Assembly: GCF_044704955.1 (NCBI RefSeq)
Contig: NC_091980.1
Location: 130,572,001 to 130,636,000 of the forward strand
DNA from: Pristiophorus japonicus
Taxonomy: Eukaryota
DNA: 64,000 nucleotides
Direction: 5' to 3'
Under the pieces are notes generated by a model. That model saw only the letters and a list, made by a program, of their open reading frames with translations. It was not told where the DNA came from and searched no databases. Below, piece by piece: positions 3,030 through 63,119 of the stretch. Position 1 is the first letter of the stretch. Each line of letters opens with the position of its first letter. A program made the position numbers and the translations under genes.

Positions 3030-6000
3030 ATGGCCTCCCAAGTGTGTCAGAACTACCACAAGGACTGTGAGGCTGCTGTCAACAAGCAGATCAACATGGA
3101 GCTCTGTTCCTCCTATGTTTACCTCTCCATGGTGAGTTGTGTATTCCTTGTTGCTGCATTCTGAAAAGTTGTTAATTCTCCAGTTCAATGAATTGGCTTT
3201 AAGTTGTATTTCTCTTGACTTCCTTCCCTGGGGGAGCAGAGTCTTTGGGCAGTGAGAACTTCAACTGTGTAATACAGGGGATCTTGTTGAGTTCATGGAC
3301 TGCTCCCTACAGCAGCTGCTCTCTATTGAAGTTTAATATCGGAAATCAGCTCAGCTGCTGCCTGAGTGTGACAGAAGAGCACAAACCTGGTCAGGGGCCT
3401 GTTGACCTGAGACAATGTTCAGTTTCAGTGGGGGACTGCAGTGAGTGAAATGTGGGTAGGTTCTCATTAGTGCTCTCATTAATTGGAGGTGATGTACTGA
3501 GAATCCTGCTGTTGGAGCCCTGCTCACTGCTGAGATCTCTTGCACTATTGTTGTGTAAACTACTGGAGTGGAGGATTTTTCTCACTCCATGTCCACACTT
3601 TGATTTAGAATGGAAGAAGAATCATTTCTATAATGCCTTTCACTACCTTGGAATATCCCAAGTGCTTTGTAGCCAATGAAGGAGTTAAGTGTAGTTACCT
3701 GTTATGTGGGAAATGCAGCAGCCAATTAGTGCACAGGATGCTCCCACAAACTGAAATTAGATAATGATCAGATCATCTGTTTTAGTGGTGTTGGTTGAGG
3801 GATAAATATTAGCCAGGAATATGGTGGAATTCTGCATTAGGATGGAGAATGAAACAGTTAATTCAGAGACCATGGTCCAGAACTTAAAGAAGGCTAACTT
3901 TGAAGGTATGAGGCGTGAATTGGCTGAGATGGATTGGCGAATGATACTTAAGGGGTTGACTGTGGATGGGCAATGGCAGACATTTAGAGACCGCATGGAT
4001 GAACTACAACAATTGTACATTCCTGTCTGGCATAGAAATAAAAAAGGGAAGGTGGCTCAACCGTGGCTATCAAGGGAACTCAGGGATAGTATTAAAGCCA
4101 AGGAAGTGGCATACAAATTGGCCAGAAATAGCAGCGAACCTGGGGACTGGGAGAAATTTAGAACTCAGCAGAGGAGGACAAAGGGTTTGATTAGGGCAGG
4201 GAAAATGGAGTATGAGAAGAAGCTTGCAGGGAACATTAAGACGGATTGCAAAAGTTTCTATAGATATGTAAAGAGAAAAAGGTTAGTAAAGACAAATGTA
4301 GGTCCCCTGCAGTCAGAATCAAGGGAAGTCATAACGGGGAACAAAGAAATGGCGGACCAATTGAACAAGTACTTTGGTTCGGTATTCACGAAGGAGGACA
4401 CGAACAACCTTCCGGTTATAAAAGGGGTCGGGGGGTCTAGTAAGGAGGAGGAACTGAGGGAAATCCTTATTAGCCGGGAAATTGTGTTGGGGAAATTGAT
4501 GGGATTGAAGGCCGATAAATCCCCAGGGCCTGATGGACTGCATCCCAGAGTACTTAAGGAGGTGGCCTTGGAAATAGTGGATGCGTTGACAGTCATTTTC
4601 CAACATTCCATTGACTCTGGATCAGTTCCTATGGAGTGGAGGGTAGCCAATGTAACCCCACTTTTTAAAAAAGGAGGGAGAGAGAAAACAGGGAATTATA
4701 GACCGGTCAGCCTGACATCGGTAGTGGGTAAAATGATGGAATCAATTATTAAGGATGTCATAGCAGTGCATTTGGAAAGAGGTGACATGATAGGTCCAAG
4801 TCAGCATGGATTTGTGAAAGGGAAATCATGCTTGACAAATCTTCTGGAATTTTTTGAGGATGTTTCCAGTAGAGTGGATAAGGGAGAACCAGTTGATGTG
4901 GTATATTTGGACTTTCAGAAGGCGTTCGACAAGGTCCCACACAAGAGATTGATGTGCAAAGTTAGAGCACATGGGATTGGGGGTAGTGTACTGACATGGA
5001 TTGAGAACTGGTTGTCAGACAGGAAGCAAAGAGTAGGAGTAAATGGGTACTTTTCAGAATGGCAGGCAGTGACTAGTGGGGTACCGCAAGGTTCTGTGCT
5101 GGGGCCCCAGCTGTTTACACTGTACATTAATGATTTAGATGAGGGGATTAAATGTAGTATCTCCAAATTTGCGGATGACACTAAGTTGGGTGGCAGTGTG
5201 AGCTGCGAGGAGGATGCTGTGAGGCTGCAGAGCGACTTGGATAGGTTAGGTGAGTGGGCAAATGCATGGCAGATGAAGTATAATGTGGATAAATGTGAGG
5301 TTATCCACTTTGGTGGTAAAAACAGAGAGACAGACTATTATCTGAATGGTGACAGATTAGGAAAAGGGGAGGTGCAAAGAGACCTGGGTGTCATGGTACA
5401 TCAGTCATTGAAGGTTGGCATGCAGGTGCAGCAGGCGGTTAAGAAAGCAAATGGCATGTTGGCCTTCATAGCAAGGGGATTTGAGTACAGGGGCAGGGAG
5501 GTGTTGCTACAGTTGTACAGGGCATTGCTGAGGCCACACCTGGAGTATTGTGTACAGTTTTGGTCTCCTAACCTGAGGAAGGACATTCTTGCTATTGAGG
5601 GAGTGCAGCGAAGGTTCACCAGACTGATTCCCGGGATGGCGGGACTGACCTATCAAGAAAGACTGGATCAACTGGGCTTGTATTCACTGGAGTTCAGAAG
5701 AATGAGAGGGGACCTCATAGAAACATATAAAATTCTGACGGGGTTAGACAGGTTAGATGCAGGAAGAATGTTCCCAATGTTGGGGAAGTCCAGAACCAGG
5801 GGTCACAGTCTAAGGATAAGGGGTAAGCCATTTAGGACCGAGATGCGGAGGAACTTCTTCACCCAGAGAGTGGTGAACCTGTGGAATTCTCTACCACAGA
5901 AAGTTGTTGAGGCCAATTCAGTAAATATATTCAAAAAGGAGTTAGATGAGGTCCTTACTGCTAGGGGGATCAAGGGGTATGGCGAGAAAGCAGGAATGGG

Positions 6001-9000
6001 GTACTGAAGTTGAATGTTCAGCCATGAACTCATTGAATGGCCTACTCCTGCACCTATTTTCTATGTTTCTATGTTTCTATGTAGGACACTGCAGAGAGCT
6101 CCTTGCAGTAGTATCTAGAACATGGAGAAGGCTTGAGGGACCAATGGCTGACTCCTGTCATTCACTAAGATCATTGCTAATCTTGTACCTCAACTCCACC
6201 TCCTGCACTGTCCCCATATCCTTTGCTATCCAAAAATCTATTGCTCTTGAATAGACTCAATGACTGGAATTCTCTAACCCAGGAGCTGTGGAGGCTCAAA
6301 GAGTCATCATGGAGTGAAGAAATTTCTCCTCATCTCAGTCCTCAATGACCCCTGGTTCTAGTCTCTCTCCAGCAAGGGGAACCATCCTCCCTGCATCCAA
6401 TCCTTCAAGTCCTGTAAGAATTTTGTACATTCCTAATGACATCACCTCTCATCCTTTGAACCTTGAATAGAGGCTCAGTCTGCTCAATCTCTCCTCCTTG
6501 ATCTTTCACATCCACCTCATGACTGACACACTCTTGTGTGAATGGCAGAAAGTAGAGGAGGTGTTGCTTATCCAGGAGTAGAATTTAGTTTGACTGGACA
6601 TGAAATATAATCCTGAACTTTAGTTTTATATGTTCAACCAGCAAAGGAAAAACTTTCATCATGCTATGGGGAGGTGAGGCTCAACTCCAATTGATGAAGT
6701 CAATGGCATTTTGCTAGTTTACAAATGGTGTCTATCTTATTAAGAATTCATTCATTCTGGGGAAAAATAACTCTTGCATTGTATATGAAGATCAAGGTCT
6801 AAATAGGCTGTCTTAATTTCTCTCTGCAGTCCTTCTACTTTGACCGGGATGATGTTGCCCTGCGTCACTTTGCTGAGTTCTTCAAGGAGCAGTCACATGA
6901 GGAACGTGAGCATGCTGAGAAACTGATGCAATTCCAGAATCGCCGTGGAGGACGGATCATCTTGTCTGACATCAAGGTTTGGTTCAAATCTTTAGTGGCC
7001 TTCTGTCTGGATACCCTTAGACCTGATTGTTTCAAATACCTCCTAAAGCAATTGATTCCGTGGTAGTGGAATTCAGTAATTCTATATTCCTGTGACATTG
7101 TTTATGGTAAAATGGACTTCTGGTTGCTTTTTTATCCTATTTTTCTTTGTACAGTCTTTTGTATTTTGTTTGTTCCATTGTAAGTGAACTACCTGTGATT
7201 TTCCTCTTCAGAAACCAGAGCAGGATGAGTGGAGCAATGGTCTGGATGCAATGCAGAGAGCTCTGCAGATGGAGAAGAATGTGAACCAGAGTCTGCTGGA
7301 TCTGCACACAATCTCCACTGGGAGCACTGACCCTCATGTAAGTTCCTCATGTGGGTTTCTGGGCAACTTGGAGGTGGTGGAACATTGCTATCCTTGAGCT
7401 GTTTCAAAAGTGCTCCATGTCCAATAGCTTTGTTTTTAGGGGGGGTGGTCTCTCTTGGGTTCTTCAGGGGGTGGGGGAGAGGACCATGAAGTTGGCCAAC
7501 TGTGGACATTGAGACATAAATGGGTCCCAATGTTTCCAGGATCTGAGCTCTCATTTGTAGGGGAGGATGAAAACCCCCTCATTTTACCCAGAAGGAAAAG
7601 GGCTGTGGGATCAGTCTGTGCTGTGAATTGAAACCGATGGAAGGAAAACTTTGGGACACAAATGGAGACCCCCCCCCCCCCAGTGTTTGGACTCAAAGGA
7701 AAGGGAATTTAATTTGGAACTATCTACCAAAAAGTTTGAAATCCTCAAGTACACATGGAAGAAACTATGAACTTTCATCGAATTTGGGATTTTTTAAAAG
7801 GTCTGCAAGAAAAGGGGTGGAGTCAATATCAAAAGGGCCAGTTTGGACATTGGAACTAATCAAATTGTCTGGGAACTGTATACCCTCGAAACTTGCCCCT
7901 TGAAAACATTAGCATTTAAACAATGCCACATACATATTCCAACACCTTTTTCATCAGGCATAGAAATATCTGGCTCAGGCCAGACTAGCACAATGGCTAC
8001 AGGAGGCCAATGCAATCAACACCCACTCAAACCTTGAGTAGGTTAAGATCAGTGGGGGAAAAAAAACCTACAAACATCAAACTGCTGCATTTTTCAAAAT
8101 CAAAAGTCCACCAATGAGAAGAATCGACTTCAGCAGGAGAGGCGGACTGGATAATCTGGCTATCAACAAGGGGTTTCTGACGTAGTGAAAAAAGAAATGA
8201 TGATTTTCCCTGCCCTCATGATTCAACAACCACAACCACAACCACAAGCCTCTCGACACTGAAGGAAAACCAGTGTCCGAAGATAGAAGAAACAAACCAC
8301 CAGACTGCGGAAGGCACAGTAGTGAGTATAACCTCCGGTCCCCAGAACTCCCAACTCAGTTAGGCCAGGAAAGGTGGGAGGTTGGGCATTGTACTGCTAA
8401 ACTGGTGTAAAGATTTTTGTTGGGTCTGTTTTTGTGGGATTTAGGGGGATTGTTTTGTTGGTGTATTGCTGTTTGTTGAATTACACCTTGTCAAATAAAT
8501 TGGAAGCCTAAAGTTCCTCTTGGAATCACCTTGTCTCAGTTCTATTGTATTACATCTCCTGATCATGAGTCTTATGCCAGAACCGTGTAAGGGAAGCTAG
8601 GAGTGCCTTGAAAACGCTCAACTGTGTGTCACAGGCTAGGGAAGAAGGTGTTAGGAGTGTTTGACACTCACAGGTGTCTCACAGGCTAGGCAAAAGCTGT
8701 GGGGACGCACGAGTCTCAAAACCCCCTTCATAAGCTGTGGATACAGTCTCTCCAGGGGTGCTCTTGCAGCACTCTGGGTACTTCACAGGTCAGGCATAAG
8801 CTGTGAGGGCAGAAGCCCAGAGAGAGACACCCAAGGCACAACAACAACCCTGTGAAAACCCCTTGCACATTGCACAGTAGCAACTGGATCATTAGAGCAA
8901 ATGTACATCAATTTCAATTGCCCAACCTGATCCTTCTCCACTCCTAGAGAATTAAAATCCTAACTTGGGGGGGGATGCACTGATCCTTGATATCTGTTAC

Positions 9001-9188
9001 TGGCCATAACTCATTTCCCTCTTCTCTTTCAGTTGTGTGACTTCCTGGAGACCCACTACTTGGATGAACAAGTCAAGATGATCAAGAAGCTTGGTGATCA
9101 CATCACCAACCTGAAGAGACTGGGAGCCCCTGAGAATGGCATGGGAGTGTACTTTTTTGACAAGCACACTCTGGAGGAGAGTGACTAA
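3030..9188 (+). CDS. FTH1: Ferritin heavy/middle-type subunit, type A copy 1 (176 aa, 4 exons)
   Basis: Exons 3030-3131, 6830-6976, 7212-7337, 9033-9188, all GT-AG, phase 0. Protein [176 protein letters not shown]. Intron positions match vertebrate ferritins. E27, Y34, E61, E62, H65, E107 and Q141 are present. AATAAA at 9306-9311. The symbol is family-level only; orthology (H vs M/heavy-chain-B) is unresolved. Confidence 0.95.
3625..3818 (-). mobile_element. SINE/L2-tail-like fragment in type A intron 1
   Basis: Resembles, from recollection, the 3' tail of a common shark SINE (CCCAAAGCGCTTTACAGCCAATGAAG...GGTTGAGGGATAAATATTGGCCAGGACAC type); not database-checked. Confidence 0.45.
3819..6082 (+). 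mobile_element. Young 5'-truncated CR1 LINE in A1 intron 1
   Basis: 4-bp TSD AGGA (3815-3818 and 6083-6086), (TTTCTATG)n tail, empty sites in A2 (near 31553) and A3 (near 61865). Confidence 0.97.
3821..6007 (+). CDS. CR1 ORF2 reverse transcriptase (endonuclease domain truncated), 728 aa uninterrupted
   Basis: Motifs [40 protein letters not shown] and [11 protein letters not shown]. Confidence 0.93.
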   Translation: MVEFCIRMENETVNSETMVQNLKKANFEGMRRELAEMDWRMILKGLTVDGQWQTFRDRMDELQQLYIPVWHRNKKGKVAQPWLSRELRDSIKAKEVAYKLARNSSEPGDWEKFRTQQRRTKGLIRAGKMEYEKKLAGNIKTDCKSFYRYVKRKRLVKTNVGPLQSESREVITGNKEMADQLNKYFGSVFTKEDTNNLPVIKGVGGSSKEEELREILISREIVLGKLMGLKADKSPGPDGLHPRVLKEVALEIVDALTVIFQHSIDSGSVPMEWRVANVTPLFKKGGREKTGNYRPVSLTSVVGKMMESIIKDVIAVHLERGDMIGPSQHGFVKGKSCLTNLLEFFEDVSSRVDKGEPVDVVYLDFQKAFDKVPHKRLMCKVRAHGIGGSVLTWIENWLSDRKQRVGVNGYFSEWQAVTSGVPQGSVLGPQLFTLYINDLDEGIKCSISKFADDTKLGGSVSCEEDAVRLQSDLDRLGEWANAWQMKYNVDKCEVIHFGGKNRETDYYLNGDRLGKGEVQRDLGVMVHQSLKVGMQVQQAVKKANGMLAFIARGFEYRGREVLLQLYRALLRPHLEYCVQFWSPNLRKDILAIEGVQRRFTRLIPGMAGLTYQERLDQLGLYSLEFRRMRGDLIETYKILTGLDRLDAGRMFPMLGKSRTRGHSLRIRGKPFRTEMRRNFFTQRVVNLWNSLPQKVVEANSVNIFKKELDEVLTARGIKGYGEKAGMGY
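6140..6500 (-). mobile_element. Decayed CR1 3' fragment in type A intron 1
   Basis: GAAGAAATTTCTCCTCATCTCAGTCCT etc. is the reverse complement of the CR1 3' end; contains an inverted 32-mer. Confidence 0.7.
7556..8867. mobile_element. 1312-bp solo LTR in A1 intron 3
   Basis: Termini TGTAGGGG...CCCCTTGCA, 4-bp TSD CATT (7552-7555 and 8868-8871), internal AATAAA, no coding capacity; absent from A2 (near 33024). Confidence 0.8.
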
Positions 9189-10964
9189 ACTGACTGGGAT
9201 CAAGCTTATTGTGTTTAGTACTTGTATTTATATAATCAGGCCCCTATACTGTAGGGAATGAATGCTTGTGACTTTGTACAAAAAGAGCTGAAACCCATAA
9301 CAGTAAATAAACTGTTCAACATTGGGCTGTGTTTTGTCACCTTGTAAATTTGAGTGGTTACTTATTTTTCATTTAACATAACTTGGCTTCTATCAAACAA
9401 GAATTACACTGACCTGTGCAACATTTATATGGGATTCAGTCTTATGAAATATGTTTTCCCCCTTGTGTAATGTCTATGTATTGACTGGGCCATTCAGGCA
9501 CCTGTTATAAGATCTAAAATGTTCAATGGTGTGTTTGGACAACTGACAGCCCCATGGGATATTGGCCCAGTTATCAAAAGTCTGGTCAGAGGTATGTATT
9601 GAGAAGGTACAGAGATGTTTAGGAAGGCATGTCTAGAGCTTGGGACTGATAAGCTGTATACAATTACCTGTTCCAACGATCTGTTTTTTACAAAGGAGAA
9701 TTCAATCCAACAAGATGTAACATCTGCTAAATTCAGGACCAATTTGCCAGTAATTCATTGTTGCACCATTTCAGTCGAATGAAGAAGTAGTCCTGGATTA
9801 GCTTCCTATTTAGTCTATCTGCCTCGTGAACGAACAGCAGTTTGTATTCAATCGCTGCAACAGATCCTCTTCAGTTATGCAGGTCGTTCAGAAATGGGAT
9901 TCACCACTGCTGCTATCGGCTTGCTGTTAAGCTTTGTAGGCAGAAAAGCAATATCTCAGCACACTGAACTCTGGGCACTACAATTGGGTGAGGAGGGAAA
10001 GCAACAGCTGGCATTAGCTTGCTGTCATAGCTTCAGTGCTTCGTGTGGATACCCTAGTCGTTCTGGGACAGCTTCTCTTCCGTCTGCTCCCCTAATGGTT
10101 GAATAACTTGCCAACACAACCTCCATTCAAACATGAATAAGGTATTGCAAGACTAACGATACTCCAACAACATTTAATACTTGGGGAAGGTGTAAATGTA
10201 TTTAATTCCACAAAGCAAAAGGCACAAGATGTTAAACCCATTTCTGGCCACAATGCCTAAGCACTCAATTTATAAGCCTATCAATTTTTTTTTGTTAGTA
10301 ATGAAATTCACAGTGGTACTAACACTCTGGATTAGATCTTCATTTCTCTCCTTCATGGCTATGAATGGATACAAATGGTACTGCTGCTCCAATAATCCAG
10401 TGTTTACGAGTTATTTTTAGGAATTTAACTGAGAACTGTGTTGAGTGCAATTAAATAGCCATGCACAGACATTCCAGGTTAATGTCTTGGCAACACTCAA
10501 GTGCCTTTCGGCTATCGATGTTACAAACTGTCATATATTGATGAGCCACAGTTCCACGAGTCGGCCTGGGTTTGCGTGCTGATGGGTTTGATGGCTTCAT
10601 GTATCAACAAATCTCTAGCTCACTCGATGTGAAACTTTACAGGTGCTCGTGTTTTAAGAATTACTTACAATTTGCAGCTCAGGAAAAAGACCATTTGGGC
10701 CAACTGGGCCATGCTGTGGTTTATGCTCCATGTGAAACTTGTCCCACCCCACTTCATCTAGACCTATTAGCATATCCTTCTATTCCTTTCCCCTTTGTGT
10801 TGATCAAGCTTTCCCTTAAATGCATCTATGCTCTTTGCATTCAGAGTTATTACTGCGGGTAGCTCAGTAAACGCACTGCTGCTGCTGTGGATTTTCTGTT
10901 CAGCTGTGTGGGTAAAGAAGTGAGTAACAGCTTTCAAGACCCGCAATGTTTGAGCTCAAGGACA

Positions 10965-13540
10965 GCATTTATTGTCCGTCACTAATTGCCTTTGAGAAGG
11001 TGCTGGTCAGCCATCTTCTTGAACCGCTGCAGACTTGTGGTGAAGGTACTCCAACAGTGCTTTTCGGGAGGGAGTTCCTGGATTTTGCCGCAGTGACGAA
11101 AAAGGAAGGGTGATATAAACCAACCTGACTTGGAAATATAACGTGGAGGTGAACTTGCAGGCGATAGTATTCCCAAACTTCTGCTGCCCTTGTCCTTCTA
11201 ATTGCTAGAGCTCGTGGGATGGCTTGTGCTGCTGAAAAAGCCTTGGCGAGTTGCTGCAGTGCATCTTGTCGATGGTACACACTGCAGCCATGGTGCACCG
11301 GTGGTGGAAGCAGTGAATGTGGAAGGTGGTGGATGGGGTGCCAATCAAGCGGCCTGCTTTGTCCTGGATGGTGTCGAGCTTCTTGATGATTGCTGAAGCT
11401 GCACTCAGCCAGTCAAGTGGAGAGTATTCCACCACACTCCTGACTTGTGCCTTGTCGATGCTGGAAAGACGTTAGGTATCAGGAGGTGAGACACTCACCG
11501 CAAAATACCCAGCCTTTGGCCTGCTCTTATTACCAGAGTATTTATGTGGCTGGGCGAGTTCAGGTCCTGATCAGCGATGATCCCCAGGGGTTAATGCTGG
11601 GGAATTCAGCGGCAGTGAATGTTAAGGGCAGGTGGTTAGACTCTCGCTTTTTGCAGATAGTCATTGCCTGGCACTTGTGTGGTGCCATTGTTACTTGCCC
11701 ATTATCAGCCCCACACTGAATGTCAAGCAGGTCTTGCTGCATGTGGGCATGGACTGCTTCATTTTCTGATGTCTTGCAAATGGAACAGAACACTGTGTAA
11801 TCATCAGCAAACATTCCCACTTCTGGCCTTTATGATGGAGGGAAGTTCAGTGATGAAGCAGCTTAAGATAGTTGGGCCAAGGACACTGCCCTGAGGTATT
11901 CCTTCAGAGATGTCCTGGGACTGAGATGATTGACCTCCAACAACCACTTCCTTTGTGCTAGATATGAGTCCAGCTCATCGAGAGTTTTCGATATTCGCAT
12001 CGACTTCAATTTTGCAAGGGCTACTTGATGCCGCACTCCATCAGATGCTGCCTTGCTGTGAAAGGTAGTCACTCTCACCTCACCTGTAATTCAGCTCCTT
12101 TGTACATGTTTGGACCAAGGCTGCAACGAGATCAGGAGCTGAGTGGTCCTGGCACAACCCAAACTGGGCATCGGTGAGCAGATTATTGTCGACAAAATCT
12201 TCCCTCACTTTGCTGATGATTGAGTGTAGACTGATGGGGCGGTAATTGGCCTGAATGGATTTGTCTGGCTTTTTCTGGACAGGACGTACCAGAGCAGTTT
12301 TTCACATTGTTGGGTAGATGCCAGTGTCTCTGTACTGGAACAGCTTGGCTAGAGGTGTGGCCATGAATTTACAGATTGTGGTGCAATACAATTCTGCAGT
12401 TGCTGATGACACAGTGCCTCATGGATGCCCAGTTTTGAGCTGCGAGATCTGTTTTGAATCTATTCCATTTAACACTGGTCAAACCACTCACCACAAAGGA
12501 GGGTGTCCTCAGTGTGAAGAGAAGACTTTGTCTCCACAAGGACTGTGTGGTGGTCACTGCTACCAATGCTGTCATGGACAGATGAATCTGTGACAGGTAG
12601 ATTGCTGTGGATAAGATCAGTAGGTTTTTCCCTTGTGTTGATTCTCTCACCATCTGTCGGAAGCCCAATCTCGATGCTATGTCTTTCAGGACTCAGCCCG
12701 CTTGCTCAGTGCTACCGAGCCCCTCTTGGTGATGGACATTGAAGCCTATTGCTATATCAGTGCTTCTTCCAAGTGGCCTTCAACATGGAGGTGTACTGAT
12801 TCATCAGCTGAGGGAGGGCGGTAGGTGGTAATCAGCAGGAGGTTTCCATGTCCAAGCTTGACCTAAACCCATGAGACTTGATAGGTTCCTGATTAAATGT
12901 TCAGGACTCCTATCGCTACTCCCTCCCGACTGTATACCACTGAGCCGCCACTTCTGGTGTGTCTGCCCTTCTGGTGGGACAGGACATACGCAGGGATGGT
13001 GAAGGAGGAATCTGGGACATTGGCCGAAAGGTATGATTCTGTGATTATGACTATGTCAGGATGTTGCTTGACTAACCTGTGAGACAGCTCTCCCCATTTA
13101 GGCACAAGATACCAGATATTAGTGAGGAGGACTTTGCAGGGTCGACTGGGCTGGGTGTACCATTGTCATGTCAGAAGCCGGTGCCGAGGTCAATGCCGGG
13201 TTGTCCATCCTGTTTTATTCGAATTATTGTTTCTTGTAACGGTTTGTTATAACTGATCGGCTTGCTTGGCCATTTCAGAGGGCAGTTAAGACTCAACCAC
13301 ATTGCTTTGGGTTTGGAGTCATATCGGCCAGATTTCCTTCCTGAAGGACATTAGTGAAGCAGATTGGTTTTTATGACAATCCGATAGCTCCCTGGGCAAC
13401 ATTACTGATACTAGCCTTTTATTCCTGATTTTAATTTAATTAACTGAATTTGAATTCCCCAGCTGCCATGGTGGGACTTTGGATTATTAGTCCAGGCCTC
13501 TGAATTACTTGTCCAGTAACTTAACCACGATGTTACCGCA
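10965..13540 (-). mobile_element. Decayed near-full-length CR1-clade LINE (second family)
   Basis: APE fragment (KWGELSHRLVKQHPDIVIITESYL...SGGSVVY), RT fragment (MFADDYTVF...MQQDL), C-terminus (VEYSPLDWLSA...LDTIQDKA); many frameshifts. Confidence 0.85.
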
Positions 13541-14215
13541 CTCTTTGCATCTCTCAATGGCACTTTTGGACTATCGATGTCACCACAATTCATACATTGA
13601 TGAGTCACAATTCTACAAGTCATGTTGGGTTTTGCGTGCTGATGAGTTTCACGGCTTCATGTTTCAGATAAAACAAATTCTTCAGCTCACTCGATGTGAA
13701 AAACTTTACAGATGCCCTTGTTTTAAGAATTATATAGAATTTACAGCACAGAAAAAGGCCATTCAGCCTGGCAAATTGCAGTGGTGAGCGGTCCTTCTTG
13801 AACGTAAAACGCATCTAGGATGAGGTGAGGAACCGAATGAGACAAGATCGATTTAATTGTCTTTCAATCATGAGCATGGAGAGCGAAGTACTGAGAGGAC
13901 TTGACTTCACACACTGAGCCTCCTCCCAACTTCATTTAACCCTATCAGCATATCCTGCCAATCCTTCCTCCCTCATGTGTTTATCCAGCTTCACCTTAAA
14001 CACTGTCTATGCTTTTTGTCTCAACTATTCCTTTTGATAGCGAGTTAAAAATTCTGAACACTCTCTGAGTAAAGAAGTTTCTTTGAAGTCTCTCTTAGAT
14101 TATTCATTCTAACTTTCTATATAATTCTATGGAGATCAGAACTGTGCGCAATACTCCAAGTGTTGTCTTGCCAAGGTTCTGTATAAATTTAACATGCTGC
14201 ACAGGGATGTGGTTC

Positions 14216-15724
14216 TGTTCACCTCAACTGTGTTCTCCCTGTGGCCGAGGAGCTCCGTCCGGAGTCACAGTGTGTATTTCGTCCCCTACGGGTAACAACG
14301 GACATGATCTTTGCAGCACGCCAATTGTAGGAAAAATGCAGGGAGCAGCGCCAGCCCTTGTACATGGCATTTTTTGATCTTATAAAGGCCTTTGAGACTG
14401 TCGACCGTGAGGGCTTATGGAGCGTCCTCCCTCCATTTTGGATACCCCCAAAAGTTTATCAACATTCTTCGCCTGCTCCACGTTGACATGCATGCCGTGA
14501 TCCTAATCAGCGGATTTGTTACAGACCCATTCCACGTCCGAAGCTGGGTCAAACAGGGCTGCTTCATCGCTCCAAAGATTTTCTCAATCTTCCTCGCTGC
14601 CAACTCCACCTCACTGGCAACAAGCTTCCTGCTGGAGTGGAACTAAACTACAAAATCAGTGGGAAGCAGTTTAACCTATGCCCTCTCCAGACCAGTGCAA
14701 GACCACCCAAACCTCTGTCGTTGAACTGCAGTATGCGGACGACGCCTGCGTCTGCGCACATTCTGAGGCTGAGCTCCAGGATATAGTCGATGCCGTCACT
14801 GAGGCATATGAAATCATGGGCCTTGCACTTAACATCCATAAGGGAAAGTGCCTCCATCAGCCTGTCTTCGCCGCACAGCACGGCCCCCCAGACATCAAGA
14901 TTCACGGCGTGGCCCTCGACAATGTGGACCACTTCCCATACCGCGGGAGCCTCCTGTCAACAAAGGCAGACATCGATGCGGAGATTCAATATCGCCTCCA
15001 GTGCGCCAGTGCAGCCTTCAGCTGCCTGAGGAAAGGAGTGTTCGAAGACCAGGCCCTCAAACCTACCACCAAGCTCACGCTCTACAGGACTGTAGTAATA
15101 CCCACCCTACTGTATGGATCAGAGGCATGGATGACTTACAGAAGGCACATCTCGTCGCTGGAGATATATCACCAAAGATGCCTCCGTAAGATGCTGTAAA
15201 TTCCCTGGGAGGACAGATGCACCGACATCAGTGTCCTCGCGCAGGCTAACATCCCCAGCATTGAAGCACTAACCACATGTGATCAGCTTTGCTGGGCAGG
15301 CCACTTAGTCCACATGCCAGACATGAGACTCTCTAAGCAACTGCTCTATGCGGAACTCCTTTATGGCAAACGAGCCAAAGTTAAACAGCGGAAACGTTAC
15401 AAGGACACCCTCAAAACCTCTCTGATGAAGTGCGACAGCACCACTGATGCCTGGGAGACTCTGGCCGAAGTCCATCCTAGTTGGAAAAAGTCTATCCGGG
15501 AGGGCGTTGAGCTCTTCGAATCTCAACGCTGCGAGCGTGAAGAGGTCAGGCAGCGGAAGGAAGGTGTGGTAAATCAGTGCCACCCACCCCCTTCCCCCGA
15601 CGAATATCTGTCCCATCTGTGACAGGGTCTGTGGCTTTCATGTTGGACTGTTCAGCCACCAACGAACTCACTATAAGAGTGAAAGCAAGTCTTTCTCGAT
15701 GATGAGGGACTGCCTATGATGATG
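14216..15724 (+). mobile_element. 5'-truncated RTE LINE
   Basis: ELQYADDA, VDHFPYRGS, PDMRLSKQLLYAEL...QRKRYKDTLK; (TGA)n-type tail GGGACTGCCTATGATGATG; possible TSD GGTTC. Confidence 0.9.
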
Positions 15725-15769
15725 GGTTCAGCTGCAGGTATTCCTCGCTCTGAGCTCAGAACTGCGCGA

Positions 15770-15995
15770 ATGGTTAACACTCATCTGTGCCTTTTTATCT
15801 CTAGAATTGACTATTTCAATGCTCTCCTGCTGGCCTTACATTCTCCATAAACTTAAGCTTATCCAAAACTCTGCTGCCCGTATCCTAACACACACCGAGT
15901 CCCACTCACCCATGACCCCTGTGCTTGTGGACCATCATTGGCTCCCGGTCTGACAACGCCTCAAATTCAAGATTCTTATCCTTGTATTAAATCCC
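15770..15995 (+). mobile_element. L2 LINE ORF2 C-terminal fragment
   Basis: Encodes SRIDYFNALL...IQNSAARILT...HWLPV-like sequence; paralogue near 39860-40080. Confidence 0.7.
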
Positions 15996-15999
15996 ACCA

Positions 16000-16170
16000 G
16001 AGCCCTTCCCTCACCTCTTTTCCCAGCACATTGATAATATCGGTGCTGTTTCGTGTTCTCACAATAAACTGGAACAATTAATTCACTATGTTCCCAATTT
16101 CCACCCTTCACTCACCTTCACATGGTCCATTTCTGTCACTTCACTTCCCTTTCTCGACTTCTCTGGCTAT
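16000..16170 (+). mobile_element. Penelope-like RT fragment
   Basis: Paralogous ORF 40028..40366 reads HIDNIGA...NFHPSLTFTWSISVTSLPFLD, typical of Penelope RT. Confidence 0.65.
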
Positions 16171-16724
16171 CGCCTCAGTCTATCAGACAAATATCCAATG
16201 AGCTGTTTGGATGTTGCTTCAAACCCGCAGATACCTGCAAATGACCAACCTACTGAACAATCCAGAACTCTTAAAAAGACACTGAATCGCAAACAACAGA
16301 GGATTCAATGAACCTTTCATGGTGGCCATTAACTGGTCCAGGCAGAGCACGGTCGATAGGGTGTTCTCTCTGTCTGCCTGCCTTTGTTCCGCGGCTATAT
16401 CCGTGCCCGGGTATCCCTGGATTGGGAGCACGCGGTGTCTGCCGGTATGCTTGAGGCTTTCCGTCATCGGAGGGCACCAGAGGGAGGGGAGCGCAGCATG
16501 GATACAGGGAAATAGTGTAAATTTTTTAAGTTTTTATGTTAGTTTTGTCATAATGTGGATCTGACAGTTTATTCCCCCTTATAAAGGGAGCACTTATGGT
16601 TTAAGTGTTTCCGATAGCTGAATTAAAATGCCCAAAGAATAGAGAATCCAATTTAACCTGTGACTCTGGATATTTGAACTGTGTTTGAGGAAAGTTCGGA
16701 CAATTGAGATCCTCATTGAGATGT

Positions 16725-16891
16725 CAGCCAATGATGCTCATTCTTCGAAGATCTGATTGGCTCTGGGAGTCCATCTCCCTCCTCCCTTTACTTGATTGGT
16801 GCTCTGAGAAGATGCAACTTCTGATTGGGTATTGATGACTGTCACTCATCATCAAGAGTGCCACACCCTGGATTATCCCTCAGTATAAATA
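16725..16891 (+). promoter_or_regulatory. Type B ferritin promoter (TATA plus multiple CCAAT boxes)
   Basis: TATAAATA at 16884-16891, 83 nt before the ATG; CCAAT at 16728; ATTGG at 16756, 16795, 16824; alignable with the type A promoter. Confidence 0.7.
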
Positions 16892-16966
16892 TTGGAGTTT
16901 GATATTAGTGAAATGTTATCTTTGTACTTCTAAAAAGTTTTTACTTTGGAAAAATAAAATATTAAG

Positions 16967-25752
<8,786 letters not shown>

Positions 25753-26329
25753 CGCTTCTGATCAGTACTCTTGTTTATACAATATGTGTGAGACTCTGTG
25801 CTACATAGAATGATGGCTTTGTACAGGCTGAGACCTGGGCTCTTGCTGTGAAATGTAATCAACTGTAAATAAACTGTTCAATATTGGACTGGGTTTTGTC
25901 TCCTTGCAATTAGTGGTTGCTTATTTTCCATTTACTGTAACTTGTTTGCAGCACAAGTATTGCACTAGGCTATGCAACAATCATACATTGGCCTCCTGTG
26001 CTGTAACCACTCAGCTGGCTCTCCAAGAACACTTCAGCTCGTCCTACTCCCTTGCATTTTCCCTGTTGCCCTGCAATGTTTTTCCTTCATGTACTTGTTC
26101 AATCCTATGATTGAAACTGCTTTCACCACCCTCTCAGGCAGTGCAATCCAGATATTAACCACTCATTGCATAAAAGTTTATCCTCATGTCAGCTGTGGTT
26201 CTTCTGCCAATTGTCTTAAATTTGTGTCTGCTGGTTCTCGTCCCTTCTACGAGTGTTAATAGTCCTATAATTTTGCTCGTTGCTGGGGTAATTTCAATAT
26301 ATTGACAGTTATATTCATAAAAACATAAG

Positions 26330-28855: not shown

Positions 28856-29077
28856 CAGTACTGAGTGAATGCCGCACTGTCAGAGGGGCAGTACTGAGGG
28901 AGCGCCGCACTGTCAGAGGGGCAGTACTGAGGGAGTGCCGCACTGTCAGAGGGGCAGGACTGAGGGAGCGCCGCACTGTCAGAGGGACAATACTCACAGG
29001 ATTCTTCACTGTCGGAGGAGCAGCACTAAGGGATTGCCACACTGTCTGAAGGGCAGTACTGAGGGATTGTTGTACAG
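28856..29077 (+). repeat. 33-bp minisatellite, about 6.7 units
   Basis: Two more units than the copies in units 1 and 3. Confidence 0.9.
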
Positions 29078-30704: not shown

Positions 30705-30772
30705 CAGGAGCTTGTACAAGACAGTGTGAGTTTCAGAACTGTGCAGAGGATAGTGAAATATAGATAGTGAAG

Positions 30773-33350
<2,578 letters not shown>

Positions 33351-39814: not shown

Positions 39815-40827
39815 GGTTCAGCTGCAGGTATTCCTCGCACTGAGCTCAGAACTGCGCCAATGGTTAACACTCATCTGTGCCTTTTTATCTCTAGAATTGA
39901 CTATTTCAATGCTCTCCTGCTGGCCTTACATGCTCCATAAACTTAAGCTTATCCAAAACTCTGCTGCCCGTATCCTAACACACACCTAGTCCCACTCACC
40001 CATGACCCCTGTGCTTGTGGACCATCATTGGCTCCCGGTCTGACAGCGCCTCAAATTCAAGATTCTTATCCTTGTATTAAAATCCCACCATGGCCCTTCC
40101 CTCACCTCTTTTCCCAGCACATTGATAATATCGGTGCTGTTTCCTGCTCTCACAATAAACTGGAACATTTAATTCACTATGTTCCCAATTTCCACCCTTC
40201 ACTCACCTTCACATGGTCCATTTCTGTCACTTCACTTCCCTTTCTCGACTTCTCTGTCTATCGTCTCAGTCTATCAGACAAATATCCAATGAGTTGTTTG
40301 GATGTTGCTTCAAACCCGCAGATACCTGCAAATGATCAACCCACTGAACAATCCAGAACTATTTAAAAGACACTGACTCGCAAACAACAGAGCATTCAAT
40401 GAATCATTCAAGGTGGCCATTAACTGGTCCAGGCAGAGCACGGTCGATGGGGTGTTCTCTCCGTCTGCCTGCCTCTCTTCTGCAGCTATATCCGTGCCCG
40501 GGTATCCCTGGATTGGGAGCACGCGGTGTCTGCCGGTATGCTTGAGGCTTTCCGTCATCGGAGGGCACCAGAGGGAGGGGAGCGCAGCGTGGATACAGGG
40601 AAATAATTTAAAATTTTTAAAGTTTTTATGTTAGTTTTGTCATAATGTGGGTCTGAAAGTTTATTCCCCCTTATAAAGGGAGCAGTTATGGGTTAAGTGT
40701 TTCCGATAGCTGAATTCAACATTCCAATTAATTAGCCCAAAGAATAGAGAATCCAATTAAACCTGTGACTCTGGATATTTGAACTGTGTTTGAGGAAAGT
40801 TAGGACAATTGAGACCCTCATTGAGTT

Positions 40828-40996
40828 GTCAGCCAATGATGCTCATTCTTCAAAGATCTGACTGGCTCTGGGAGTCCATCTCCCTCCTTCCTTTACTTGA
40901 TTGGTGCTTTGAGAAGATGCAACTTCTGATTGGGTACTGATGACTGTCACTCATCATCAAGAATGCCACACCCTGGATTATCCCTCAGTATAAATA
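40828..40996 (+). promoter_or_regulatory. B2 promoter
   Basis: Paralogue of the B1 promoter; TATAAATA at 40989-40996; one ATTGG is mutated to ACTGG. Confidence 0.65.
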
Positions 40997-41071
40997 TAGG
41001 TGTTTGAGATTGACAAAATGTTACCTTTGCACTTCTACAAAGTTTTTATTTTGGAAAAATAAAATATTAAG

Positions 41072-56101
<15,030 letters not shown>

Positions 56102-56679
56102 TCAGTACTCGTGTTTATACAACGGGTGATATACTCTGTCCTACATAGAATGGTGGCTTTGTACAGGCTGAGACCTGGGCTCTTGATGTGAAATGTAATC
56201 AACTGTAAATAAACTGTTCAATATTGAGCTGGGTTTTTTCTCTTTGCAAGTTACTGGTTGCTTATTTTCGATTTACCATAACTTGCAGCACAAGTATTGC
56301 ACTCGGTTATGCAACAATCATACATTGGCCCTCTGTGCTGTAACCACTCAGCCTGTTGAGCCTCTGCTGGCTCTCCAAGAGCACTTCAGCTCGTCCTACT
56401 CCCTTGCATTTTCCCTGTAGCCTGCAATGTTTTTCCTTCATGTCCCTGTTCAATCCTATGATTGAAACTGGCTTCACCACCCCCTCGGGCAGTGCAATCC
56501 AGATATTATCCACTCACTGCATAAAAGTTTATCCTCATGTCAGCTGTAGTTCTTCTGCCAATTGTCTTAAATTTGTGTCTGCTGGTTGTCGTCCCTGCTG
56601 TCAGTGCAAACAGTCCTATAATTTTTTGCTTTGCTGGAATAATTTCAATATATTGACATTCCTATTCACAAAAACATAA

Positions 56680-58625
56680 ATCGGAGCAGTAGTAACCCAT
56701 TTGGTCATGTGAAGCCTGCACCGCCATTCAATATGATCATTACTGATCCTTTACCACCACCATGTTCATGCTTTTACCCCATAGCCCTTGATGCCTTTTG
56801 TATCAAGATATCTCACATCATCCTTAAATATATTCAGCAATTGGGCTCCACTGCCTCCTGTAGTCAACAGTTCCCCAGCTTCTCTATCCTGAGTGAAAAC
56901 ATTTCTCATCTCAGCGCTAAATTTCCTACCCCGTATCCTGAGCCTGTGACCTTTTGTTCTCAACTTCCCAGCCAGGGGGTACTTCCTCCCCACATCCAGT
57001 CTCCAAACCAGTCTGAATTTTATGATTCATTAAGATCCCCTTTCACTCTTCTGGTGAATACAGGCCTGGTCAACCCATTCTCTCTTCACATGACAATCTT
57101 TCCATCCAAGGAATCAGTCTGGTGGAACTTCGCTGCGCTCTTTCTTGGTTAAAGAGACCCAAAACTGTGCACAATACACCAGGTGTCATTTCACCAAGGC
57201 TGTGTATAATTGTTGTAAGACATCCTTGCTCCTGTACAGTGGAAAAAAATTGTAAATATTACATTTGGTTTCTTCCTCCTCCAAATCTATTTATATACGT
57301 GACGAGCTGGGGCCCAAGCACTGATCCCTGTGGTATCCCACTCGTCACTGCCCACCACCCAGGAAAAGACCTGTTTATTCCGACTCTGTTTTCTATCAAT
57401 TAACTAATTTTCAATCCATGGCAGTATATTACCCCCAATCCCATGTGCTTTAATTTTGCTCACTAACCTCTTGTGGGACTTTATCAAAGGCCTTCTGACA
57501 ATCCAAATACACTACATCCACTCGTTCTCCCTTATCTAATCTCAGTTACATCCTCAAAAAAGAAACTCCAGTAGGTTTGTCAAACACCATTTTCATTTCA
57601 TAAATCCATATTGACTTTGTCTAATCGTGTTGATATTGTCTCAGTGTCCCTTTATCACATTCTACTAATGTTAGGCTAACCGGGCTGCAGTTACTGTTTT
57701 GTTTCTCCTCCCTTTTTAAAAATAGTGGGGTTACATTTGCCACAATCCATTCTGCGGCAACAGTACCATAATCTGTAGAAATTTGGAAGATGATAACCAA
57801 TGCATCCACTATTTCCATGGCTACCACTTTTAGTACTCTGGGATGCAGATTATCAGGCCCTGGGGATTTATCAGCTTTCAGTCCCATTAGTTTCTCCAGT
57901 ACTATTTTCTTACTAATAATCATTCTCTTTAATTTCTCTTGCTCACTCGACCCTTAGTTCCCTAGCATTTCTGGGATGTTATTTGTGTCCTCTTCTGTGA
58001 AGACAGAACCAAAGTATTAATTGTTCTGCCATTTCCTTGTTCCCCATAATTTATCCCATTTGTGACTGAAAAGAACCTACATTTGTGTCTCTTTCTTTTT
58101 ACATACTGGGAGAAACTTTTACAGTCGGTTTATATGATCCTTGCAAGTTTAGTCTCCTATACTATTTTCCCCCTCTTAAACAATCTCTTGGTCATTTTTT
58201 GCTGAATACTAAACTGCTCCCAATCCTCAGGATTGCTACTTGTTCTGGCAACTTTGTATGACTCCTCTTTGGATCTAATCCTAACCTTAATTTCTTGTGT
58301 AAACCATGGTTGGGCTACTTTTCCTTTTGTCTTTGCAGCATAAAGGAATGTATAATTGTTGCAATTTATGCATGCGTTCCTTAAATGTTAGACATTGACA
58401 AAACACTATCATGCCTTTTAATGAATCTTCCCAATCTGTCATAGCTATTCCTCATACCTTTGTAGTTTCCTTTGTGTAGATTTAGGACCTAGTTTTGGAT
58501 TGGACAACTTCACTTTCAGTCTTCATGAAGATTGAAAATCATGTTATGAACATTCTTCCCTAAAGGATCCCGCACAAAAAGACTATTAATTAACCCCTTC
58601 TCATTGCACAATACCCAATCTACGA
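56680..58625 (-). mobile_element. Decayed CR1 downstream of B2
   Basis: [18 protein letters not shown]...NVTPLF; paralogue of 26330-28250. Confidence 0.85.
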
Positions 58626-59213
58626 TAGCTATTCTGACATGTTGAAGACCTAATTTCACTTGCATGTATATGTAATGACTCAAAAATCTGGTTACTGTAA
58701 ACTCACTCAGGTGCAACATCATCCATCTTTATTCCAGTGCCAGTGTGACAAAGACACCCAGCTTATATACAGGTGATCAAGCACACATGCCACGTGTATA
58801 CAGCCCGATGATCTCCGACCGCAGCGCCCTCTGGTGTCTTGTGACTACCAAGCATTAATCCATAAGAGTATATCTTGCAAATTCTATTCATGCATTTCAA
58901 TCGAGCATTGCAATGCTGTAATCCAACAATTGAAAATGATCACGTTTGTTCAGCCACATAAGGCAGTGGGGCCACAGGTACAATTTGGTGTCTTAAAGGA
59001 GGCAGAGAGGTTTACATAACATTCGTATGCCATTTGGCACCTCGAGCCTGTTCCGCCAATCAGTAAAATCGTGACTGGTCTGATCTTGGTCTCAACACTT
59101 TCCTGCCTGTTCCCCATAACCCTTGACTCCGCTATTGTTAAAAAATCTATCTATCTCCACCTTAAATGTATTCAATGACCCTGCCTCCACACACGCACAC
59201 GCACACAGACACA

Positions 59214-59369
59214 CAGTACTGAGGGAGTGCCGCACTGTCAGAGGGGCAGGACTGAGGGAGTGCAGCACTGTTAGATGGGCAGTACTCACAGGATTCTTCA
59301 CTGTCGGAGGAGCAGCACTAAGGGATTGCCACACTGTCTGAAGGGCAGTACTGAGGGATTGTTGTACAG
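59214..59369 (+). repeat. 33-bp minisatellite, about 4.7 units
   Basis: Paralogue of 1166-1321. Confidence 0.9.
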
Positions 59370-60867
59370 ACTCATGTTTGATTCAAGTGGGTCAACTGTG
59401 CTCATTGGTGGCATCTCCCCCGAAAGGGTAGTGTCTGTGGTGTGATTGGTGGCTCCGGATCTGAATCACTGCCGCACTCTCTGCCCCATCTAAAGCAGAG
59501 TTTTAATCCAAGGGAACACCTCTCATCAGCTCATCCAGGACTGAACCACTTCTGCACTGAAACCAGACGTCACGGCTTTGGATCTCCGGGATACACCAGC
59601 ATGAAAGGTCAATGACCAGAGGGGAGAGATGAGGACGATTATTTTAACGCAACGAGTTGTTGTGATCCGGAACGCGCTGCCTGAAAGGGTGGTTGAATCA
59701 GATTCAACAGTAACTTTGAAGAGGGAATTGCATATATACTTAACAAAAGTTGCAGGGCTATGGGGAAGGAGCTGAGGAGTGGGACGAATTGGATCGCTCT
59801 GACAAAGTGCCTGCACAGGCACGATGTGCCGAATGGCCTCTTTCTGTGCTGATAGAATCTATGATGAGCCAGACAGTTAGAGCATATCTGAGCCTCATCA
59901 TTTCAATCAGATTTAAATATTCATCATTTCAATCAGATTTAAATATTTTTTCGAGTCACTGATAACCGACTGTAAAAAGACACGTCTAACACATCAAATT
60001 GAGGGGCAGGAAAAGATCAGCTGGTCCATCAAGCCTGCCCCAAAACATGCCGGAGCAAATCATAGAATCATAGAATGGTTACAGCACAGAGGGAGGCCAT
60101 TCGGCCCGTCGAGCCCGTGCCGGCTCTCTTCAAGAGCACTTCAGCTCGTCCCACTCCCCTGCCCTTCCCCTGCAACCCTGCTATTAATTTTTCCTTCAGG
60201 TACTTATCCAATTCCCTTTTGAAAGCCACGATTGAGTCTACCTCCACCACCCTCTCGGGCATTGCATTCCAGATCCCAACCACTCGCTGTGTAAACATGT
60301 CGCCTTTGGTTCTTTTGCCAGTCACATTAAATCTGTGTCCTCTGGTTCTCGACCCTTCTGCCAATGGGAACTGTTCCTGTCTATCGACTCTGTCCAGACA
60401 CCTCATGATTTGGAATCCCTCTATCAAATGGAGATGTGGGTGACAATGTGTTCAGTCATGTTCATTCCCTCTCATTCTCACTCAATATATTGAATTTTAC
60501 CAGGCATCATTCCATGAGAATAAAAATGACAGATCGTTGATGCCCCCATGTAGCCAATCCTCAGACACATGCCCATTCTCTATATTCGAACTGGGGGCAG
60601 TTCACACCACCCACAAGATGGAATTCCCATTCCACTGGCCAATGCTTGGTTTGTAAATGCACCAAGACGACTTGATTGCTTTGAATATTGTTTCAGTGCC
60701 ACAGAAACTTGCAAGTAACAAACTTCGCCAGATTGTGAAAAACTCCTTTGGCGAAAGTAGAAAATTATCATTTCATTCAAGTGAGAGCTTGAAACAACGG
60801 CACACTTTCAGATTTGAAGACGTTCAAGGAACCCAAAGGCAGTGACATCACCAAGACTGATCTTCCC

Positions 60868-61009
60868 CAGCCCCCTCCGCCGAACCCCCTCTCCTTTGTT
60901 AATTGGTGCCTTAATTCAGGGAAGATTCCTGATTGGCTCTGAGGGATTGTCAATCATCATTGGTGATGTCATACCCTGTTTGAATGCAGCTGTTCCAATA
61001 GTATAAATA
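60868..61009 (+). promoter_or_regulatory. A3 promoter
   Basis: Paralogue of the A1 promoter; TATAAATA at 61002-61009. Confidence 0.65.
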
Positions 61010-61077
61010 CAGTAGCTTGTGCAAGATAGAGTGAGTTCTAGAACTGTGCAGGTGATAGTGAAATATAGATAGAGAAG

Positions 61078-63119
61078 ATGGCCTCCCAAGTGCGTCAGAA
61101 CTTCCACAAGGACTGTGAGGCTGCTGTCAACAAGCAGATCAACATGGAGCTCTGTTCCTCCTATGTTTACCTCTCCATGGTGAGTTGTGTATTCTTTGTT
61201 GCTGCATTCTGAAAAGTTGTTAATTCTCCAGTTCAATGAATTGGCTTTAAGTTGTATTTCTCTTGACTTCCTTCCCTGGGGGAGCAGAGTCTTTGGGCAG
61301 TGAGAACTTCAGCTGTGTAATACAGGGGATCTTGTTGAGTTCATGGACTGCTCCTGACAGCAGCTGCCCTCTATTGAGGTTTAATATTGGAAACCAGCTC
61401 AGCTGCTGCCTGAGTGTGTGACAGAAGAGCACAAACCTGGTCAGGGGCCTGTTGACCTGAGACAATGTTCAGTTTCAGTGGGGGACTGCAGTGAGTGAAA
61501 TGTGGGTAGGTTCTCATTAGTGCTCTCATTAATTGGAGGTGATGTACTGAGAATCCTGCTGTTGGAGCCCTGCTCACTGCTGAGATCTCTTGCACTATTG
61601 TTGTGTAAACTACTGGAGTGGAGGATTTTTCTCACTCCATGTCCACACTTTGATTTAGAATGGAAGAAGAATCATTTCTATAATGCCTTTCACTACCTTG
61701 GAATATCCCAAGTGCTTTGTAGCCAATGAAGGAGTTAAGTGTAGTTACCTGTTATGTGGGAAATGCAGCAGCCAATTAGTGCACAGGATGCTCCCACAAA
61801 CTGAAATGAGATAATGATCAGATCATCTGTTTTAGTGGTGTTGGTTGAGGGATAAATATTAGCCAGGACACTGCAGAGAGCTCCTTGCAGTAGTATCTAG
61901 AACATGGAGAAGGCTTGAGGGACCAATGGCTGACTCCTGTCATTCACTAAGATCATTGCTAATCTTGTACCTCAACTCCACCTCCTGCACTGTCCCCATA
62001 TCCTTTGCTATCCAAAAATCTATTGCTCTTGAATATACTCAATGACTGGAATTCTCTAACCCAGGAGCTGTGGAGGCTCAAAGAGTCATCATGGAGTGAA
62101 GAAATTTCTCCTCATCTCAGTCCTCAATGACCCCTGGTTCTAGTCTCTCTCCAGCAAGGGGAACCATCCTCCCTGCATCCAATCCTTCAAGTCCTGTAAG
62201 AATTTTGTATATTCCTAATGACATCACCTCTCATCCTTTGAACCTTGAATAGAGGCTCAGTCTGCTCAATCTCTCCTCCTTGATCTTTCACATCCACCTC
62301 ATGACTGACACACTCTTGTGTGAATGGCAGAAAGTAGAGGAGTTATTGCTTATCCAGGAGTAGAATTTAGTTTGACTGGACATGAAATATAATCCTGAAC
62401 TTTAGTTTTATATGTTCAACCAGCAAAGGAAAAACTTTCATCATGCTATGGGGAGGTGAGGCTCAACTCCAATTGATGAAGTCAATGGCATTTTGCTAGT
62501 TTACAAATGGTGTCTATCTTTTTAAGAATTCATTCATTCTGGGGAAAAATAACTCTTGCATTGTATATGAAGATCAAGGTCTAAATAGGCTGTCTTAATT
62601 TCTCTCTGCAGTCCTTCTACTTTGACCGGGATGATGTTGCCCTGTGTCACTTTGCTGAGTTCTTCAAGGAGCAGTCACATGAGGAACGTGAGCATGCTGA
62701 GAAACTGATGCAATTCCAGAATCGCCGTGGAGGACGGATCATCTTGTCTGACATCAAGGTTTGGTTCAATTATTTAGTGGCCTTCTGTCTGGATACCCTT
62801 AGACCTGATTGTTTCAAATACCTCCTAAAGCAATTGATTCCGTGGTAGTGGAATTCAGTAATTCTATATTCCTGTGACATTATTTATGGTAAAATGGACT
62901 TCTGGTTGCTTTTTTATCCTATTTTTCTTTGTACTGTCTTTTGTATTTTGTTTGTTCCATTGTAAGTGAACTACCTGTGATTTTCCTCTTCAGAAACCAG
63001 AGCAGGATGAGTGGAGCAATGGTCTGGATGCAATGCAGAGAGCTATGCAGATGGAGAAGAATGTGAACCAGAGTCTGCTGGATCTGCACACAATCTCCAC
63101 TGGGAGCACTGACCCTCAT
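61078..63119 (+). CDS. FTH1: Ferritin heavy/middle-type subunit, type A copy 3 (exons 1-3; exon 4 lies beyond the window)
   Basis: Exons 61078-61179, 62612-62758, 62994-63119. [48 protein letters not shown].../KPEQ...RAMQMEKN...[11 protein letters not shown]. Symbol is family-level only. Confidence 0.9.

Follow-up and report, generated by a model that had tools for sequence, protein, structure and literature searches.

The window analyzed here is a 64-kb stretch of contig C4 (NC_091980.1) of the shark Pristiophorus japonicus, C4:130,572,001-130,636,000 in a 5.9-Gb genome, and it carries five ferritin genes of two types, A and B (gene and element coordinates without a contig prefix are positions in this window). 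The window belongs to a 5.6-Mb array of an estimated 300 ferritin genes without iron-responsive elements (IREs), about half of the sampled copies being broken. We consider it probable that the alternation of A and B genes came from repeated copying of a segment in which the two were neighbours, and that the array serves as a dosage amplifier for bulk ferritin.

A ferritin array of several megabases

The five genes are co-oriented on the + strand in the order A-B-A-B-A between positions 3030 and 63119, as the first-pass annotation of this DNA had proposed, and reading of the flanking sequence confirmed that the repeat runs beyond both window edges. A1 (3030-9188; exons 3030-3131, 6830-6976, 7212-7337, and 9033-9188), B1 (16967-25752; exons 16967-17068, 19847-19993, 25166-25291, and 25597-25752), and A2 (30773-33350; exons 30773-30874, 32299-32445, 32689-32814, and 33195-33350) are intact and encode 176 amino acids each. 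B2 (41072-56101; exons 41072-41173, 50157-50303, 55503-55628, and 55937-56101) has lost its normal stop codon and gains three extra codons, giving 179 amino acids. A3 is visible as exons 1-3 (61078-61179, 62612-62758, and 62994-63119), and its exon 4, past the window edge, is intact. The 19 visible exons had been described as undamaged, which holds for their lengths (102/147/126/156 nt), AG/GT splice sites, and frames, with no internal stop or frameshift, and fails only at the stop codon of B2. The genes have four exons with phase-0 introns at the same positions as two IRE-bearing ferritin genes on contigs C14 and C19, and exon 2 of all five matches the PF00210 ferritin domain (37-46 bits, cut-off 24.5). 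The coding sequences are 97-99% identical within a type and 92-95% identical between A and B. A TATA box lies 76 nt (A) or 83 nt (B) upstream of each ATG, at 2954-2961 (+ strand) in A1, whose leader is short and lacks an IRE, at 16884-16891 (+ strand) in B1, and from 30697, 40989, and 61002 in A2, B2, and A3, respectively.

The outermost units found on C4 lie at 127.780 and 133.406 Mb, spanning 5.6 Mb, and the sequence read further out, 80 kb and 124 kb, respectively, contains no ferritin exon. Exact exon-2 patterns gave 189 matches for one pattern and 41 + 194 = 235 matches for two others; among the matches listed (the first 100 each for the patterns with 189 and 194 matches), all are on C4, and 58/58 matches of a narrower pattern fall at 127.8-133.4 Mb of this contig. 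The exon-2 pattern counts, scaled by capture rate, lead to an estimate of 289-309 copies. We found 110 units in the 1.734 Mb of sampled sequence, of which 101 have four exons and 50 are intact. The earlier picture of an array with all genes intact is thus that of a local run: 60/110 sampled units are broken or incomplete, and the window sits within a run of eight intact genes. In a sister block 104.8 kb upstream, which extends over 69 kb at 97.4% identity, three of the five matching genes are broken. The history of the array is one of birth-and-death evolution.

Nested duplications of 9-69 kb with 92.5-99.0% identity occur within 464 kb; the best long match reaches 99.0%, most lie at 92-98%, and transposon insertions differ from copy to copy. 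Because such long duplications occur in a gap-free stretch, allelic haplotypes are ruled out for the window region, and the ferritin amplification proposed in the first-pass annotation is real, its units being 92-99% identical and carrying different insertions. The repeat had also been described as a 28-30 kb pair. The A-to-A spacing is indeed 27.7 and 30.3 kb in the window, but ranges from 15.8 to 40.4 kb over 20 intervals; the unit length varies with transposon insertions, such as the long interspersed nuclear element (LINE) in A1 intron 1 and the long terminal repeat (LTR)-like element in B2 intron 1. At C4:129.0-129.7 Mb, exon-2 matches recur at a constant offset of ~261 kb and then again inverted, which indicates that segments of very large size were duplicated recently or that the assembly itself contains a duplication. 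The array switches strand at C4:130.90 Mb, where the junction units are heavily broken.

Leader classes, iron control, and coding constraint

The copies were classed by leader, that is, by upstream sequence, which divided 80 four-exon copies into 23 A and 57 B. The two classes alternate far more often than chance would give, though only in the centre of the array: 44 of the 55 steps between exon-1-bearing units in a 734-kb block are switches, a value reached by 0/100,000 permutations. The first-pass annotation had proposed co-amplification of an A+B segment, which is borne out by the 15 intact A and 14 intact B copies of this block. Across the five other sampled blocks, intact A copies number 2 and intact B copies 19, and three of the five are B only. 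An A-leader pattern matched C4 at 38 sites, which lie without exception at 129.0-131.2 Mb, and C19 at one. Corrected for capture (23/31), the 38 matches correspond to ~51 A-leader copies of ~300, which sets the array-wide A:B ratio at about 1:5, and the A-like residue Q68 occurs in 41/235 exon-2 matches. The gene dosage of about 1:1 that had been proposed for A and B is therefore a local feature of the 734-kb block.

Residues are numbered here as in the first-pass annotation minus 3. Comparison of 13 intact A copies with 12 intact B copies from the co-oriented run upholds four of the seven A/B differences previously listed as fixed (positions 15, 68, 80, and 164), and the other three overlap between the classes (26, 95, and 117). 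The fixed differences comprise 4 replacement and 7 silent changes and the segregating ones 52 replacement and 32 silent changes (p 0.19). Positive selection between A and B was rejected, as there is no excess of fixed replacements. Among the B-leader copies, A15 occurs in 13/70 and C26 in 11/70. The silent divergence (pS) is 0.041 for A-A, 0.056 for B-B, and 0.145 for A-B comparisons, and such similar values within the classes with a larger value between them are as expected for the co-amplification of two older paralogues. The introns and leaders of A and B can be aligned near the exons only, whereas the exons are about 90-96% alike, a pattern that appears to fit selection and possibly gene conversion. 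In the coding tree, the A copies form a group with support of 74-87; next to it stand four B-leader copies, and the left-end A copy is placed among these four. Since the backbone of the tree is without support, it is not used to order the events. Eight copies at C4:129.74-130.84 Mb form a sub-class with a B-like leader and A-like exon 1 residues, and all eight are broken.

No IRE-like hairpin is present in the last 120 nt of any of the 80 leaders, and the window gave no Rfam match, the canonical 5' IRE (RF00037) included. Only 82 candidates were scored for RF00037 in the genome, yielding six matches, none on C4; an intact canonical IRE is found in two single ferritin genes, those on C14 and C19. 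The B leaders retain a decayed remnant of this element: 47/57 have at least 13/20 matches, compared with 1.7% of shuffles, and the loop is never intact. In contrast, the remnant occurs in 0/23 A leaders. The remnant of B1 lies at 16925-16944 (+ strand), with 13/20 matches to the genome's intact IRE core and a broken loop, and that of B2 at 41030-41049 (+ strand), with 12/20 matches. The IRE-bearing genes on C14 and C19 have glycogen synthase genes at distances of 1.8 and 4.3 Mb, and no glycogen synthase was found on C4 in a search that sets a floor. Three glycogen synthase genes were seen, on C13, C14, and C19; mammals have two. Four spliced retrocopies of array-type mRNA, one of them with a B-type leader at 91%, point to past germ-line transcription of the array type. 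No A-type retrocopy occurs among the 39 A-leader matches, from which four 15-mer matches on other contigs were left out.

The ratio of replacement to silent differences per site (pN/pS), obtained from pairwise and site counts on present-day copies, is 0.28-0.43 in 40 intact copies and 0.40-0.59 in 40 broken copies; these ranges span pair sets and transition weights, and the values are lower with CpG codons left out. Disjoint nearest pairs, 20 intact and 20 broken, differ (Fisher p 0.029), and the intact pairs depart from the neutral site ratio (p 2e-11). A ratio near 1, which the first-pass annotation had named as evidence against its proposal, is thus not seen in the intact copies, which, judged from their sequences, are under purifying selection. 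The ferroxidase centre, which we take to comprise E27, Y34, E61, E62, H65, E107, and Q141 (array numbering being human minus 3), has all seven residues in the five window genes, A and B alike, and in 35/40 intact copies of the first sample; five of the seven positions are invariant in 40/40. At the presumed nucleation positions of the M subunit, array ferritin has E54 and E61, with H at 57. The M subunit of fish and amphibians combines acidic nucleation residues on helix B with a ferroxidase centre, a concept from PMC9224801.

The available text of PMC11076521 names A19, N22, R23, L27, Y30, R80, F82, K87, D90, V111, and S114 of human FTH1 for NCOA4, and reports that A19Y, N22A, and R23A abolish NCOA4 binding. 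We mapped this site from the published residue numbers plus a sequence offset of +4, which fits 10/11 named positions in at least one of the IRE-bearing ferritins (C14, C19). The R23 position (19) holds K in 87/101 and R in 0/101 four-exon array copies, the A19 position (15) holds D in 53/70 B copies, and the Y30 position (26) holds C in 30/31 A copies; both IRE-bearing ferritins carry R and A at the R23 and A19 positions. R23K is conservative and not among the variants described as tested in that text, and surface residues vary anyway, which speaks against a functional meaning; the apparent changes of the NCOA4 site are a lead, not a result. A search for shark NCOA4 gave a single weak match to ARA70, on C22 (E 2.7e-6), with no convincing motif in the surrounding 60 kb, outside which the exon may lie. 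There is a slim chance that the array ferritin escapes both arms of iron control, through a dead IRE and a remodelled NCOA4 cleft (R23 to K in most copies, A19 to D in the B type found across sharks), and that in this species A, amplified in tandem with B, resets the cleft (A19 kept, Y30 to C), the A:B mix tuning the release of stored iron, probably in the egg. Should the changes at the NCOA4 site block or tune ferritinophagy, the array would provide a natural iron depot uncoupled from translational and degradative control, which would conflict with a published proposal in which additional copies fuel ferroptosis through ferritinophagy.

Explanations and published shark clusters

We propose that a single A-leader gene and a single B-leader gene were neighbours within ~25-30 kb, and that this segment would have been copied repeatedly, likely via unequal crossing-over; the alternating order would then most likely be the footprint of segmental duplication. 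Many near-identical TATA-driven genes without an IRE brake would act as a dosage amplifier, and catalytically active ferritin would be made in bulk regardless of cell iron. A and B would co-assemble as near-equivalent chains, so that the A:B ratio would matter little. The site of bulk production would most likely be the ovary or oocyte, with the ferritin destined for the egg, by analogy with the Greenland shark, whose largest ferritin cluster is ovary-specific in expression (bioRxiv 10.1101/2024.09.09.611499, available text).

Several points weigh against this proposal. An assembly gap lies near each array end, and the sampled sequence consists of six blocks within the 5.6 Mb. The intact copies are balanced in the 734-kb block (15 A : 14 B), and A15 and C26 are present in 31/31 and 30/31 A-leader copies, a pattern also expected under selection for two types. 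Many replacements still segregate within the classes (52 replacement : 32 silent). Broken copies, too, have a pN/pS below 1, which means that shared history and gene conversion contribute to the pairwise values. In addition, fin and blood are reported to transcribe some copies (PMC13214024, available text), and a role confined to the ovary is therefore not established.

Four other explanations were weighed. The leaders form clean upstream classes, the IRE remnant separates B from A, 17/31 A copies are intact, and A-like leaders also occur in a small C19 cluster, which makes this class older than the local amplification. These observations suit two promoters for one protein, the A and B leaders serving different cells or stages (e.g., oocyte and follicle cell) and A being kept for regulation and not for stoichiometry. 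However, the A leader is restricted to ~2.2 Mb of the array centre, bar one left-end copy and the C19 relics, and we think this explanation unlikely. It is a smaller possibility still that the array is a mostly neutral accordion with few functional copies, in which the rest, the window block included, expand and decay by drift. The 60/110 broken or incomplete units, the segregating replacements, and the three broken genes of the sister block are in its favour; the pN/pS of about 0.27-0.43 in nearest intact pairs and the invariant ferroxidase positions oppose it, as do the large arrays retained in distant sharks according to the available parts of the published accounts.

It is quite doubtful that A and B are functionally distinct subunits whose stoichiometry is kept by paired amplification wherever the central sub-array is expressed, even though the switches and balanced intact copies of the 734-kb block are what such a cassette would produce. 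The leaders differ and the introns are mostly unalignable between coding sequences that remain 92-95% identical, and the two most stable class markers, at 15 and 26, coincide with A19 and Y30 in the NCOA4-binding cleft of the human protein. Nevertheless, the local 1:1 follows from co-duplication alone, and both markers recur in B-leader copies. Outside Pristiophorus-labelled proteins the A signature is almost absent, with 1 C26 and 2 Q68 in 45 others. The first-pass annotation had proposed a cassette holding two functional subunit types at 1:1; the array-wide ratio and the B-only blocks contradict the 1:1, and the ~94% identity, the ferroxidase centre with its seven residues kept in both, and the 4 : 7 fixed changes without excess of replacements do not support the two functional types. 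Finally, an assembly artefact of uncollapsed haplotypes is extremely improbable. A few copy pairs have identical coding sequence and some distant blocks recur at constant ~260-kb offsets, but 24 A-leader copies lie in one gap-free 734-kb stretch, and the identities of the long matches and the copy-specific transposon insertions given above are not those of haplotypes.

The array is a further instance of the published shark ferritin expansion. In its available text, bioRxiv 10.1101/2024.09.09.611499 puts the Greenland shark at 155 FTL-like and 179 FTH1-like copies, with clusters shared with the white shark, and PMC13214024, likewise seen in part, reports 59 FTH1b copies in tandem and a higher copy number in sharks generally. 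As far as these texts go, the array described here is the same as the FTH1b, Greenland shark, and white shark clusters in being multi-megabase, in having well over 50 genes, and in lying apart from the housekeeping genes. It differs in an estimated ~300 copies compared with 59 annotated or 104-118 mapped, and in having about half of the sampled copies broken compared with "more than 85% full length"; IRE loss, leader classes, and alternation are not mentioned in the available parts of those accounts. Our literature searches found no report of A/B alternation or NCOA4 residues in shark ferritin, a weak blank since the same searches missed both shark papers. The present analysis contributes a copy number that is probably higher, a measurement of how many sampled copies are broken, and a map of both leader classes, and a broken fraction of about half tempers the "full-length" counts used in longevity and ferroptosis arguments.

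A protein search with one retrocopy (a B-like query) returned 290 proteins, and the best 120 were reduced to 113 tabulated ones by dropping 7 unlabelled or invertebrate rows; the 90% clusters conceal variants. Among these 113, the nearest bear the Pristiophorus japonicus label, one being identical to a sampled copy outside the window. The top matches are proteins from sharks, grouped in clusters with as many as 180 members, many other shark and ray proteins are about 80-93% identical to B1, and bony-vertebrate ferritins reach 71-78%; B1 and the IRE-bearing C19 protein are 73% identical. In 45 non-Pristiophorus representatives with at least 78% identity to B1, 36 have D15, 39 K19, and 41 Y26, in addition to the rare C26 and Q68 counted above; with D15 and K19 at the A19 and R23 positions, the apparent changes of the NCOA4 site extend to array ferritins across sharks. 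These residue counts indicate that B is the general shark type and that the A signature is seen only under the Pristiophorus label.

The H and L ferritins of mammals are far apart in sequence. Mammalian FTH1 and FTL are likewise two chain types per genome that could share a 24-mer; in the partial sources available they differ in ferroxidase activity and NCOA4 binding, whereas A and B, with about 94% identity to each other, each possess the seven ferroxidase residues and lack the IRE. The available text on fthl27 of the hadal snailfish (PMC10746142) also describes tandem amplification of a fish ferritin, whose over-expression gives protection against reactive oxygen species, but with 14 copies and broad expression compared with ~300 copies in the shark array. 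The yolk ferritin of snails (PMC10799875, available text) is also without an IRE and tied to egg provisioning, but it is secreted and encoded by a single gene with a signal peptide and a 42-aa insert, whereas the shark copies start at the cytosolic N-terminus.

Other ferritin loci and mobile elements

About eight ferritin genes or relics surround the IRE-bearing gene in a mixed cluster at C19:93.05-93.20 Mb, including array-like relics with A-like leaders and divergent, L-like genes without ferroxidase residues; this cluster is a possible source of the C4 array. An intact four-exon ferritin gene at C19:93128522-93141732 has a 31-residue Arg/Leu/Ala-rich N-terminal extension and no IRE, and may be regarded as a candidate mitochondrial ferritin with introns. 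Four dispersed copies of the first ~90 bases of the C19 ferritin leader, IRE included, occur on C10, C12, C17, and C18, and with their near-equal start and end points they look as if a short 5' RNA fragment had been retro-inserted repeatedly.

The transposable elements around the window genes had been described as decayed, which is not true of all of them. The LINE in A1 intron 1 (3819-6082, + strand) is young and 5'-truncated, retains a 733-codon open frame with an RVT_1 domain, and ends in short tandem repeats. It is absent from A2 and A3 and, by gene span, common to the sister copy 104.8 kb upstream. The insertion in B2 intron 1 (41950-48333, no strand assigned) is 6.4 kb long and LTR-element-like, with 580-bp terminal direct repeats that are 92% alike, and gave no Pfam match in the single frame scanned. 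A reverse-transcriptase remnant lies in B2 intron 2 (52904-53761, - strand), and a related remnant is found in B1 intron 2 (22814-23422).

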